Positions 30,001 to 33,000 of a stretch of DNA of 64,000 nucleotides are shown in pieces. The DNA is taken from assembly GCA_943788915.1 (NCBI GenBank), contig CALSSD010000010.1:702373-766372 (forward strand). The letters run 5' to 3'. Origin of the DNA: an uncultured Acidimicrobiales bacterium. Lineage in GTDB: Bacteria; Actinomycetota; Acidimicrobiia; Acidimicrobiales; UBA10347. Position numbers: made by a program. The first letter of the stretch is position 1. The number at the start of each line of letters is the position of its first letter.

Positions 30001-33000
30001 GCTGGGTCGACAATTTCAAGTTGTTCGACGAGATCGGCGCGGTCGGACCGTGGAACAAGAACACCCATGCCGACGACCTCAATCGTCGGTACTTCGAGGA
30101 ATACGTCGACATCGTCTACAAGGCGTTGAACAACGAAACGTTCCGACACGACGGTGAGTTCTTCACATTTCCGAACATCGACCAGAATCCGCATGTGCAC
30201 GACGTGTATAGCACCTACGGTTTGGGTGTCGATGCCGACATGAACATCACCGAGACCGGTATCGCTCCACGCCCGTTCCAGTCGCCGCACCCCAAGATCT
30301 ATTCGGGTTTCACGGGGTCGGCTCGCACCGCTGGGTTCTGGGGAAGGTACGGCGGCAAATCGATCGTGCTCGGCGGCGGTGCCGATCTGCTCAAGGCGAT
30401 CTGGAGTGCCTATGACGAGACAGCAGCGCAGTATGGCCGCACCGTCGTTCCGGGCGAGCAGGCGTGTTGGGGCGGGTTCATGATCTGTGCCGAGACCGAC
30501 GAGGCAGCGCAGGCTCAGCTCAAGGATGCGGAATGGTTCTTCGACAACTGGTCAGTGCCCTTCGGTCAGCCGATGGCTCGGCTGCTGGTAGGCAGTCCCG
30601 ACACCATCTCTGCCAAGATCGAGGCCGCGACCAAAATCGTGCCCATCAACGAGGTCATGCTGTTGATTCCTCAGGGCATCCACGGTCCTGACCAGATCAA
30701 CCCGAGCCTCGAGTTGTTCGCCGAGAAGGTCATGCCTCGCTTCAGCTAAACGACAGACGGCCGAAGCAGTCCTTTGCCAACTGCCAGTCCCCTCAGCCAT
30801 CGCACGGGGAGGAACAAGGCTGTCTAGCCCTACCCACATCAGCGGGTGGAAAAGCTCGCCAGATCTGAGTCGGTGCGCTCGTCGACGGTTTTCGTGGGAG
30901 AGTGGAGGTCGGTCGCCCTCAGGGCGGTCTCGATAAGGAGCCAATCATGGCAGGCAAAGACAAGGGTGGACGCGCCGCAAAGACCGCGGCATCCAAAACC
31001 CCGAAAGAAAAGAAACAGGCCAAGAAGGACAAGAAGTCAGGCAAAGGCGCATCCGGACTGTCGTAGTTTGCCGGCTTGGTATCAGTGGCCAGCGGTGTTG
31101 GCAGTTGGATACGGCTGAAGGGGTGTGAGCGACCGTGCGTGGAGTGCGAGGGCCTCAGCGTTCAACCCGGTGAGCCACGGGGAACCCGAGCATGCCGTTG
31201 TGAGCGAAGACATAGGCGTTGGTTCGTAGTGGGTCGCCAGCGACGCCGATCAGGAGGTGATCGGGCTGGCCCACTATCGGCACCATGCGCTCGGGGTCGG
31301 TCGATTCGGCAAATCGGCGGTCCGCTTTTTTTGTATTGACGAAGTCGACGAGTCGGCGTCGGCCTGGCACGAGGTTTGTCCAGTGTCCGAGGTAGTCCTC
31401 GAACCGGCTCGCTGGAATCCGGGCTCGGTCGAAGAGGGCCTGCTGGAGCTGGGCCTTCGTCCAACCTGATGCAGCGATTGTCTCTGCGAGAATTGGACTC
31501 AGTAGCAGGAGCGGACGGTAGGTCTCGCGTGAGATACCAATGGTGAAAACCAGCTCCCAGCTTGTCTGGCTCACGATGGCATCGGCTAGGTAGTCGACCA
31601 TGTGCTCGGCCTGCTGGCCGTAGACCGAGGTCACGACTCCTCCACCGGTGTAGCGCGACACACTCACCACATCGTCGCCACGCTCGAATCCGAAGGCTCC
31701 GGCGAAGTTGGGCCAGTCGATGGTTTCGAGCACCGTCTCGTTCTCGGCGATGGCGACCCGCCAGGTATTCCCAAAGGTTGCCTTGTCGGTCTCGTGGGGC
31801 AGGAAACCAGCGATGTTGCGCAGCATCAGTCGCCAGAATCGACCAACCGAGGTGTTGGCCTGGAAACCATCGCGCAGCACCCCCTGCTCACAGTTGAATC
31901 CCAGCTCGGCAGCGATGGGGCCGTTGATCGTGATGAGGGTGTCGGCCCCTGGTGTGTTGCCCGAGTGCTCAACCCCATAGTTGGGGTCGGCCATACAACG
32001 ACCCAGGGCGACGAGCACCGGCATGTACTCCGGCCGGCAACCGGCCATCACCCCGTTCACAGCGATACTCCACACCGTTACCTCGCGGTTGTCGGGCAGC
32101 ACGACGCCGAGCACCTTGTCGGCGTCGAAGATGGTGAGTGCCAAGAAGGCCTCGACGGCGGCATGGGTGGGAGGGACGATTGGCAGGCCGTCGCTCCACC
32201 GTTCGGCCAGGAAGCGGGCGTTGATTTCCTCGAATGAACCCGAGGCGACAATCTCGCGACGGCCAGGTTCTTCAGGTCGTTTGGCATCCCCAGGACGCGC
32301 CGTCAGGTTGGCCAAGACCGCCGGCACGGTGATCTCGCGCACGTTACGTTCAAGGTCCGACAGCTCCTGGGTATCAACATGGCCCGGCACGACTGCCACA
32401 GGGAGGTTGGGTCGCCCCAGTCCGGCCGCGGTTGTGGCGGCCTGGTGCAAGAATCCCTCGCACGTAAGTGAGCTCGAAGGGATACCGGCGGCTTCGACAG
32501 CGTTTGAGGCCCGCAACACGGCGGGCGTACAACTACCTCAACACGCCATCCCGGAGACCACGGCATCGACGCCGCGGTCGCGCAGCAGTTGGGGGAGTGC
32601 GGCCACCAGCTCGGCTTCACCGTCGCCATGGGTCGTTCCGAACTGATCGAAATCGATGATTTCGACAGTGGGAAAGCGAGCCTTGAGCTCCTCTGCGATG
32701 ATCGGGAAGATTTCGTCGCCACGAAACATGTAGTCCCACAGAAAAGCGACCGTGCGTCCGTCGAGCGAATCGGGACGATCGGCGAGGTCTTGGAGCTCGA
32801 CCGCTTGCGGGCTACGGGGCCAGACCACTTCATATGCATCAGACATGGCACAAGAGTAGTCCGCTCCTTCGTCGCCGTATTCTCTGACCGTCTCGATAGG
32901 TCGTCCTCAGCAGGATGGCTTCTAGTCTCGGCCTATGACCCGTTTGCAGTTCGGTGCCTTCCTCGCACCACACCATCCCATCGGGGAGCATCCGACCCTG

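Follow-up and report, generated by a model that had tools for sequence, protein, structure and literature searches.

The 64-kb window, i.e., the whole stretch of DNA analyzed here, contained several genes with an in-frame UGA codon predicted to be read as selenocysteine (Sec, U). The longest of them, a UGSC-family fusion gene, was flanked on both sides by genes for monooxygenases. The features were as follows.

31155..32846, minus strand: UGSC-family selenoprotein with an uncharacterised DGLPxxPPT domain of ~370 aa; 563 aa, predicted Sec103
32538..32540, minus strand: in-frame UGA for the predicted Sec103, motif MAC-U-GSC; the second-strain copy on contig C28 also has TGA
32509..32526, minus strand: SECIS-like hairpin with a 6-bp stem and the loop CGUGUU, +12 to +29 past the UGA
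51088..51618, minus strand: stand-alone UGSC selenoprotein, 176 aa, predicted Sec92; UGA at 51345-51343, hairpin at 51313-51331
51617..53058, minus strand: partner gene of the small UGSC gene, with a CxxC N-terminal part and a DGLPxxPPT domain
14046..15137, plus strand: AhpD-related CFYU selenoprotein, 363 aa, predicted Sec223; UGA at 14712-14714, hairpin at 14732-14750
29598..30749, plus strand: luciferase-like monooxygenase (PF00296), adjoining the UGSC fusion gene; an O2-using enzyme, listed as context
32935..35844: luciferase-like monooxygenase (plus strand) and FMO/Baeyer-Villiger-type monooxygenase (minus strand) (PF00296, PF00743), on the other side of the UGSC fusion gene

The fusion gene (32846-31155, minus strand) consisted of ORFs of 102 and 454 codons in the same frame, separated by a TGA at 32540-32538, and reading this TGA as U gave a single ORF of 563 aa. 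The UGSC model PF24696 matched residues 6-182 across the U (E 4e-27, 95.8 bits, cut-off 25), and Cys was found at the Sec103 position in full-length homologues, with the pattern A-C-G-S-C in 8 of 11 and unmatched in three. These results bear out the survey's finding that the split gene is one selenoprotein with Sec at the UGA. The protein has the U-G-S-C motif and the model match across the UGA in common with the UGSC family (PF24696, NF041046), and scored 48.7 bits against the NF041046 equivalog cut-off of 125. In the predicted structure (pLDDT 94, pTM 0.92), the UGSC domain is modelled with a Rossmann/flavodoxin-like fold, whereas a Trx-like fold was suggested in 2008. The fusion can be likened, by text description only, to the UGSC/Unknown_1 fusion of Zhang and Gladyshev (2008).

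The DGLPxxPPT partner domain had no match in Pfam/NCBIfam, in a PDB sequence search, or in the Atlas search. Fold comparison likewise gave no match (best Z 4.7, rmsd 2.8, 76 aligned), and the best Foldseek hit was class I fumarate hydratase (E 2e-3, TM 0.25); this does not establish a new fold. The stand-alone UGSC protein scored 157.9 bits, over the NF041046 cut-off of 125, and among its 80 best related loci the TGA was kept in all 80, as was the partner domain upstream of UGSC. The partner gene itself has a frameshift near its 3' end as assembled and no Pfam/NCBIfam match, and UGSC and partner domain are fused in two of the six copies of the analyzed genome. The window fusion protein may be a two-part enzyme, in which the UGSC domain would offer a UxxC selenol-thiol pair to the partner domain; the latter would bind the substrate, whose bond would most likely be cleaved reductively, as in PrdB/GrdB. 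The CFYU selenoprotein was also over the cut-off of its model (NF041238, 340.9 bits).

Genome-wide, 40 genes with 41 UGAs were identified in which the UGA lies at a Cys position according to a family model or conserved homologues. Thirty-nine of these are on main contigs, where 37 are intact and two are frameshifted as assembled (counted from the assembly), and one is on the second-strain contig C16. The survey had reported 31-32 such genes, a large set as claimed but numbered too low; the additions made here are GPx, two ArsC, SelL-like, rhodanese, and methyltransferase genes, and the MerB-like gene proved to have two UGAs instead of one. The scan covered 51 candidates: 38 had a family model across the TGA at a redox position, the methyltransferase was confirmed later, and 12 were rejected (no model across the TGA in any of them). 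A paralogue search added one AhpD-like Sec gene (C6:395129), while another 12 candidates examined afterwards all lacked a model across the TGA and were likewise rejected. The candidate at C7:132124, with CP-U-C, a hairpin, and TGA in both strains, had no family match and was left uncounted, and an initial scan of junctions under loose settings, which returned 1221 candidates, showed no signal specific to TGA. After coding-like junctions, UxxC was present at 40 of 662 TGA versus 12 of 503 TAG and 3 of 325 TAA.

Some families differed from their closest models. The Pfam GRDB model, previously said to span the TGA of the PrdB-like genes, in fact stops 3-4 residues before the U; the model that spans it is TIGR04483, for which the seven PrdB-like copies scored 75-149 bits, below the PrdB equivalog cut-off of 300. 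The methyltransferase carries a Cys-Sec motif (DVLC-U) and is without the Sec motifs UxxG and CxxU of the catalogued ArsM, MduS, and MTase/UXPK-star; its intact relatives scored 22-52 bits against the 263-575 cut-offs of these families. The MerB-like protein, with two UGAs each followed by its own hairpin, scored over the cut-off of PF03243 (58.6 bits, cut-off 27) and under those of NF040728 (31.8 versus 140) and NF033555 (20.1 versus 200). Like SaoL (NF040728), as described in the Haft preprint, it has Sec at the MerB Cys159 position; unlike SaoL there, the position matching MerB Cys96 is also Sec. Since identity around the UGA did not exceed 69% between any two counted genes, old duplication, in line with the paralogue expansion put forward by the survey, and repeated transfer would both fit the Sec paralogues, as judged from identity.

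A strict hairpin filter was positive at 29 of the 41 Sec sites and negative at 12, against a background of 2.2-3.1% (58 of 2452 TGA, 44 of 1402 TAG, and 34 of 1128 TAA gene ends; 252 of 11193 Cys codons). This filter was shaped on the first 34 sites of the analyzed genome, and on held-out sites of a same-genus genome (G001) it was positive at 17 of 30. The enrichment of hairpins after these UGAs is not due to chance. A loose filter was discarded as a separator, as it passed 33 of 40 Sec sites but also 17-19% of ordinary stops, and the DNA alignment of 24 UGSC hairpins was too conserved for much covariation signal. Each UGA would be followed by a bacterial SECIS hairpin, with a stem from about +12 to +18 and a GU-containing loop at +17 to +27, which would bind SelB.

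The genome harbored a tRNA-Sec (UCA) at C8:141994-142085 (69.7 bits, cut-off 47), SelA over its cut-off (TIGR00474, 389 bits), and two copies of SelD (TIGR00476), one of them with a UGA. The selB gene noted by the survey is there, with the SECIS-binding wing (PF09107) over cut-off, but the survey missed that one extra base splits it in the assembly. This base was absent in all four public runs from four studies, and the split is therefore an assembly error; in four of four congeners the SelB frame is open over 596-620 aa. The best TIGR00475 match (C10:230473) was rejected as SelB, being EF-Tu. The selA-selB region is also covered by contigs from RNA libraries, a coverage that cannot show transcription. 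Together, SelA, the Sec-containing SelD, the Cys-type fused SelD, and tRNA-Sec would supply Sec-tRNA.

The UGAs were conserved among relatives. TGA was kept in 65 of 66 PrdB-like matches, and TGA-bearing UGSC, PrdB-like, CFYU, or ArsC matches were found in none of the 14 high-quality relatives without tRNA-Sec. In G001 (95% complete, 4% contaminated), a UGA at a redox motif was identified in all 28 matches checked, so that a partial sweep yielded 28 or more. TGA is also kept in second-strain copies, as the survey noted, but in two of the five copies the 360 nt around the TGA are identical, so that these two give no independent support. The set of Sec genes would predate the split of the genus. 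As a whole, the observed codons, motifs, hairpins, machinery, and conservation are best explained by in-frame UGAs that are selenocysteine codons, and it is likely that this marine Acidimicrobiales heterotroph, predicted to respire oxygen and rich in oxygenases, has ~37-40 selenoproteins, into which Sec would be incorporated in vivo.

The survey combined a large selenoproteome with an aerobic lifestyle; the former is larger than stated and the genes for aerobic respiration are present, while aerobic life itself is suggested by gene content. Cytochrome c oxidase CoxA, of the low-affinity type, was found over cut-off with its operon, and CoxA was matched in all 46 high-quality genomes of the comparison set. 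KatG was found, and the main contigs had 63 luciferase-like, 17 BVMO-like, and 4 TauD-like genes (our own gene calls, which split genes may inflate). An A-type heme-copper oxidase and O2-dependent enzymes, which are among the marks expected of an aerobe, occur together. Alternatively, the Sec genes may be real but belong to a microaerophile, or to a facultative anaerobe living on particles, in sediments, or where oxygen is scarce in the water, which would leave the rule that Sec-rich bacteria are anaerobes uncontradicted. The genome does encode several molybdoenzymes of no assigned type together with a BisC/TorA-like S/N-oxide reductase, the PrdB-like proteins of Clostridia are enzymes of anaerobes, and the labels of the runs give marine or estuary only, with no oxygen value and with estuary runs among the holders. 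Against this stand the CoxA operon, KatG, and ~80 O2-dependent flavin oxygenases, the finding that none of the molybdoenzyme stretches tested matched at the level of NarG or NapA, and the dominance of the same families in surface-ocean reads (PMC2398784, Table 2). Searches for PrdA/GrdE (PF09338) and GrdA (PF04723) were also blank in all five genomes, where no positive control gave signal. We consider this alternative unlikely. A rhodopsin search, run without a positive control, was blank.

Most of the Sec proteins would be thiol-redox enzymes with Sec in place of the catalytic Cys. They may act in peroxide removal (Prx-like, GPx, and AhpD/CMD selenoproteins), disulfide exchange (Trx/TlpA, UGC, SelL-like, DsbA, and mycoredoxin-like), metalloid handling (ArsC and MerB-like), sulfur transfer (rhodanese), and formate oxidation (FdhA), alongside two orphan groups, the seven PrdB-like proteins and six UGSC modules. 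Judging from gene neighborhoods, this network would serve redox defence and repair in a cell with ~80 flavin oxygenases.

Co-assembly of several strains or species could also have raised the count, a risk to which a 2026 review points for a MAG with 63 genes. Contamination is 7.7%, ~20 small contigs duplicate large ones (93-99% identity), C3 overlaps with C7 (94.7%), and one Sec gene is present on C16 only. However, duplicates were removed, the counted genes are well apart around the UGA (the limit given above), the tetranucleotide correlation is ≥0.995 among the 11 main contigs, and G001 reached its own total by a partial sweep; substantial inflation is thus improbable. The MAG is a mix of two strains, and therefore the count per cell may differ by a few. 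It is barely credible that the TGAs are normal stop codons, lesions in pseudogenes, or the mark of a general reassignment of UGA. Despite several indel errors in the assembly (selB, cox2), the UGA=Trp reported for Eggerthellaceae, and a paper on UGA=Trp in Actinomycetota (PMC13462651), TGA is the stop codon of 2480 of the 5010 called genes, and conservation already contradicts this reading, as the sites align with Cys and the TGA is kept across families and gone in relatives without tRNA-Sec.

Selenoprotein-rich Acidimicrobiales have precedents. With a threshold of six genes, exceeded here by both the intact and the total count, Peng et al. 2016 (PMC5029168, Table S2) give 15 selenoproteins for Ilumatobacter coccineus, 10 for I. 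nonamiensis, and 7 for Ca. Microthrix parvicella, all above it; the main text, in its accessible part, names three selenoprotein-rich groups only. The analyzed genome resembles these Acidimicrobiales in SelA/B/D and at least six selenoproteins, but with ~39 it has 2.6 times the highest Table S2 entry outside Deltaproteobacteria and Clostridia, a ratio across differing counting methods, so that the 2016 counts may be low. According to a preprint (bioRxiv 10.64898/2026.04.03.716425), Actinomarina, likewise marine Acidimicrobiia of oxic water and with universal Sec machinery, is of a different order and has ~5 selenoproteins per genome. Accordingly, the survey's proposal of a new Sec-rich lineage in Actinomycetota and under oxic conditions is only partly borne out. 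Bacterial records are Syntrophobacter fumaroxidans (39), Desulfosediminicola (40-46), the Olavius Delta-1 symbiont (57), and a Methylomirabilota MAG (63). These sets are similar in size and also have many Trx-fold and orphan families, but their holders are anaerobic or belong to other phyla and have hydrogenase, Hdr, and several Fdh, whereas the analyzed genome encodes one FdhA and an aerobic respiratory chain.

The families are those already known from ocean metagenomes. In the GOS work (PMC2398784, PMC9402790), the marine selenoproteome is led by SelD, Trx-like, AhpD-like, UGSC, Prx, PrdB, DsbA, UGC, Grx, GPx, and ArsC, as in the analyzed genome, and the UGSC/Unknown_1, Prx-DsbC, and Ndh-SelD fusions were already described. 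The GOS sequences are unassigned reads, whereas here most of the set is in one genome, often in multiple copies; the string 'Actino' does not occur in the main texts of either paper. SelW, the top GOS family, was found in G001 and not in the analyzed genome. As far as searched, the size of the selenoproteome, which ties with the 39 of Syntrophobacter, its genus-wide spread, the Cys-Sec methyltransferase, and the two-Sec MerB-like protein are new.

Taken jointly, and with slightly less than even confidence, we propose that no other aerobic bacteria have selenoproteomes as large as those of this genus (~30-40 per cell, on par with sulfate-reducer records), that the host-less selenoproteins seen in the oxic ocean since 2008 stem in large part from marine Acidimicrobiales, and that this lineage continues to acquire Sec sites, as in the Cys-Sec methyltransferase family and in a MerB-like lyase whose two catalytic Cys would have become Sec stepwise. 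The orphan ocean families UGSC, PrdB-like, and CFYU would gain hosts and gene neighborhoods, and dozens of redox genes in such genomes are split by standard annotation. Ilumatobacter is aerobic, and its cultured members are a possible bench model. According to a 2026 review (PMC13188914, section 10), aerobic bacteria rarely keep selenoproteins, Sec being too reactive under oxygen; a widespread marine lineage with ~40 predicted Sec genes and a full aerobic toolkit would be a direct test of the view that aerobes avoid Sec.

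The window gene (32846-31155, minus strand) consists of 102-codon and 454-codon open reading frames in the same frame, with a TGA between them at 32540-32538. With the UGA read as selenocysteine (Sec, U), it encodes a 563-aa protein with the motif MAC-U-GSC, and the PF24696 (UGSC) match spans the UGA (residues 6-182, E 4e-27). A SECIS-like hairpin lies 3' of the UGA at +12 to +29, with a 6-bp stem and the loop CGUGUU. The best 120 database homologues were mostly this same 3' fragment, beginning just past the motif, and Cys occupied the Sec position in 8 of the 11 full-length homologues among them. 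Two further Sec genes in the window, which covers positions 702373-766372 of contig C10, exceeded their NCBIfam cut-offs:

51618-51088, minus strand, small UGSC gene, UGA at C10:753717
14046-15137, gene for an AhpD-related CFYU protein, UGA at C10:717084

Genes of the whole genome (G000) were called with a hexamer model of our own (5010 calls, 2480 with a TGA end), and TGA junctions were gathered via coding score, self-homology, Cys motifs, and hairpins. In 38 of 51 scanned candidates, a Pfam or NCBIfam model crossed the TGA at the redox position; another 12 were rejected, and the remaining one, a methyltransferase, gained confirmation at a later stage. A paralogue search added one AhpD-like Sec gene, and none of 12 additional TGA candidates held. 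The Sec-rich genome of about 31 genes claimed by the survey's finding is real, and larger: we identified 40 predicted Sec genes with 41 UGAs, a non-exhaustive count that C-terminal Sec and families lacking a Cys motif or hairpin may escape. Thirty-nine genes were located on 11 main contigs (37 intact, the UGC gene at C13:166644 and the methyltransferase gene at C8:71751 being frameshifted elsewhere as assembled), and the 40th, Prx-DsbD_N, was found on the second-strain contig C16 only.

Sec genes of G000 by family, with TGA positions (contig:nucleotide)
UGSC, 6 genes: C3:484333, C9:69670, C10:734912 (window gene), C10:753717, C13:98337, C13:100019
PrdB-like, 7 genes: C3:180539, C5:49103, C5:53928, C5:357936, C6:189013, C8:85896, C9:174780
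CFYU, 3 genes: C3:393003, C9:111434, C10:717084
AhpD/CMD, 5 genes: C6:189662, C6:395129, C10:506503, C13:36900, C13:191484
Prx-like, 2 genes: C3:366606, C5:186262
Trx/TlpA-like, 3 genes: C5:493517, C7:127717, C9:46332
UGC, 2 genes: C8:198047, C13:166644
SelL-like: C12:36441
DsbA: C5:309709
Mycoredoxin/Grx-like: C10:275778
GPx: C10:56508
ArsC, 2 genes: C2:159115, C13:18452
Rhodanese: C13:136936
MerB-like, two UGAs: C10:327328 and 327523
FdhA: C8:209012
SelD: C9:107901
Methyltransferase: C8:71751

Among the PrdB-like copies, C5:357936 has U-P-L-D in place of UxxC and therefore lacks the resolving Cys. PrdB-like and AhpD-like Sec genes lie back to back at C6:188524-189991, with a similar pair in two relatives (G004 and G059). 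At C8:204559-209231, FdhA lacks the first ~57 profile positions; these are found at the end of the iron-sulfur subunit gene downstream, beyond an intervening NuoE/F-like gene. A TGA in DVCP-U-C at C7:132124 (minus strand) and C16:12575, with a hairpin in both strains and no family match, was left uncounted.

The Sec machinery comprised tRNA-Sec (C8:141994), SelA exceeding its cut-off, and two SelD proteins, one Sec-type and one Cys-type and fused. The top match of the selB model was EF-Tu, not SelB; the true selB (C5:465778-467566) follows selA and is broken by one extra base. This base was absent from the contigs of all four public runs (four studies), indicating that the split is an assembly error, and the SelB frame is open (596-620 aa) in 4 of 4 congeners. 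Single-base indels likewise split cox2 (C5:318.6 kb) and the UGSC partner gene (window 51617-53058), and therefore the assembly carries indel errors.

A strict hairpin filter was positive at 29 of the 41 Sec sites, compared with background gene ends (TGA, 58/2452; TAG, 44/1402; TAA, 34/1128) and Cys codons (252/11193). Since this filter was tuned on the first 34 sites of G000, the same-genus genome G001 is the fair test, in which 17 of 30 sites were positive (31 TGAs minus one that is a neighbouring gene's stop). At coding-like junctions, UxxC followed TGA in 40/662 cases, TAG in 12/503, and TAA in 3/325. Some 20 small contigs repeat sequence of the large ones with 93-99% identity; these copies were left out of the count, and identity around the UGA was at most 69% between any two counted genes. 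The survey also claimed retention of the TGA in second-strain copies; two of the five such copies are identical over 360 nt and so add no support.

Each small UGSC gene of G000 adjoins a gene for the ~370-aa partner domain, which the long form carries as a fusion, and this partner gene lay upstream on the same strand in all of the best 80 of 507 related UGSC loci. The predicted structure of the fused protein was confident (pLDDT 94, pTM 0.92), and residues 25-188 resembled generic Rossmann/flavodoxin-like folds (Z 9-12, rmsd ~3, 115-150 aligned residues) and not the Trx fold proposed in 2008 (PMC2398784). In the partner domain, Cys270 and His294 are near-invariant, and a search with its model gave no fold match. 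The UxxC end of GrdB matched small UGSC proteins weakly (E 0.001-0.008). None of the scanned genes flanking the window gene was TrxB-like, although no search aimed at such a gene was made. The window protein is tentatively proposed as a reductive cleavage enzyme, a role that is possible rather than probable, in which the selenol of the UGSC domain would drive PrdB/GrdB-like chemistry on a substrate that the partner domain would bind.

Two protein forms were absent from Table 1 of a 2026 review (PMC13188914):

C8:71356-72232, minus strand, class I SAM methyltransferase with a DVLC-U (Cys-Sec) motif and hairpin, frameshifted in the assembly
C10:327064-327741, plus strand, MerB-like protein with two Sec codons and one hairpin each

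In three relatives from other families (44-49% identity), the methyltransferase TGA and hairpin are conserved and the stem shows a paired change. CC occupies the site in 109 of 120 database homologues. No NCBIfam selenoprotein model came near its cut-off, and no catalogued selenoprotein family fits. The two-UGA MerB-like form, with a hairpin at each UGA, occurs in G000, G001, G004, and G008; G002 and G031 have Cys at the first site, whereas G037 and G058 have it at both. Motif likeness and the description of the MerB-like selenoprotein SaoL suggest that MerB Cys96 and Cys159 are the counterparts of the two sites.

CoxA exceeded its cut-off within a cox operon and was matched in all 46 high-quality genomes of the set, and KatG was present. 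The main contigs held 63 luciferase-like, 17 BVMO-like, and 4 TauD-like calls (own gene calls, which split genes may inflate), and such oxygenase-type genes flank the window gene. Against these signs of oxygen use, a BisC/TorA-like reductase and several unassigned molybdoenzymes suggest that a strictly aerobic reading may not hold. Immediately ahead of the main cox operon, on its upstream side, is a second, very divergent COX1-like gene (C5:320590-322374), paired with a COX3-like gene of its own.

In GTDB, the best 80 of 507 UGSC loci all have TGA at the Sec site; their titles mostly name Acidimicrobiales or Acidimicrobiia, including Microthrix, Poriferisodalis, and the aerobic Ilumatobacter. 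Among 60 relatives (8 of the same genus and 52 of other families of the order; one, G049, unpublished), 42 had tRNA-Sec, 33 UGSC, 22 PrdB-like proteins (2-6 copies in every congener), and 16 CFYU; TGA was present in 65 of 66 PrdB-like matches, G000 included. In the 14 high-quality genomes without tRNA-Sec, the UGSC, PrdB-like, CFYU, and ArsC searches gave no TGA-bearing match, and five had Cys-type ArsC or UGSC. All TGA-bearing matches of nine family or protein searches were taken in G001 (95% complete, 4% contaminated), and UGA stood at a redox motif in 28 of 28, including SelW and TxxU Prx, neither found in G000. A Trx-like protein of G001 (C23:26747) has U-P-F-U, with Sec at both motif cysteines. 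Unverified tallies of TGA-bearing matches were lower in other genomes (~20 in G002 and G031; ~10-12 in G005, G030, and G059), indicating that richness varies. G037, from another family, had 10 UGSC matches and no PrdB-like match; expansions thus differ by lineage. Across the phylum, just 6 of 120 genomes had UGSC. The species was present (at least half the words) in 17 runs from 13 studies (label marine, estuary, aquatic, or none), one of which may be the source sample.

Anaerobes make up 78.3% of selenoprotein-rich organisms (PMC5029168). All entries above 15 in its Table S2 are Deltaproteobacterium or Clostridium, and outside these groups the highest are Ilumatobacter coccineus and a Poribacteria genome (15 each), with I. 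nonamiensis at 10 and Ca. Microthrix at 7. Aerobes seldom keep selenoproteins according to the 2026 review, which gives record selenoproteomes of 57 and 63 and does not contain 'Actinom' (PMC13188914). Desulfosediminicola has 40-46 selenoproteins (deep-Sep, PMC12013277) and Actinomarina ~5 per genome (bioRxiv 10.64898/2026.04.03.716425), and the GOS papers list the same families without hosts (PMC2398784, PMC9402790). Our literature searches gave no report of a 30-40-gene Acidimicrobiales selenoproteome, although Haft and Tolstoy 2025 and Deng et al. 2026 may contain part of these findings. The novelty claimed by the survey therefore narrows: this kind of system is already known, because the 2016 table already includes Sec-rich aerobic Acidimicrobiales without remark and the protein families have been catalogued, but the scale of the selenoproteome and the two protein forms appear new. 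A large selenoproteome is common to the genus.
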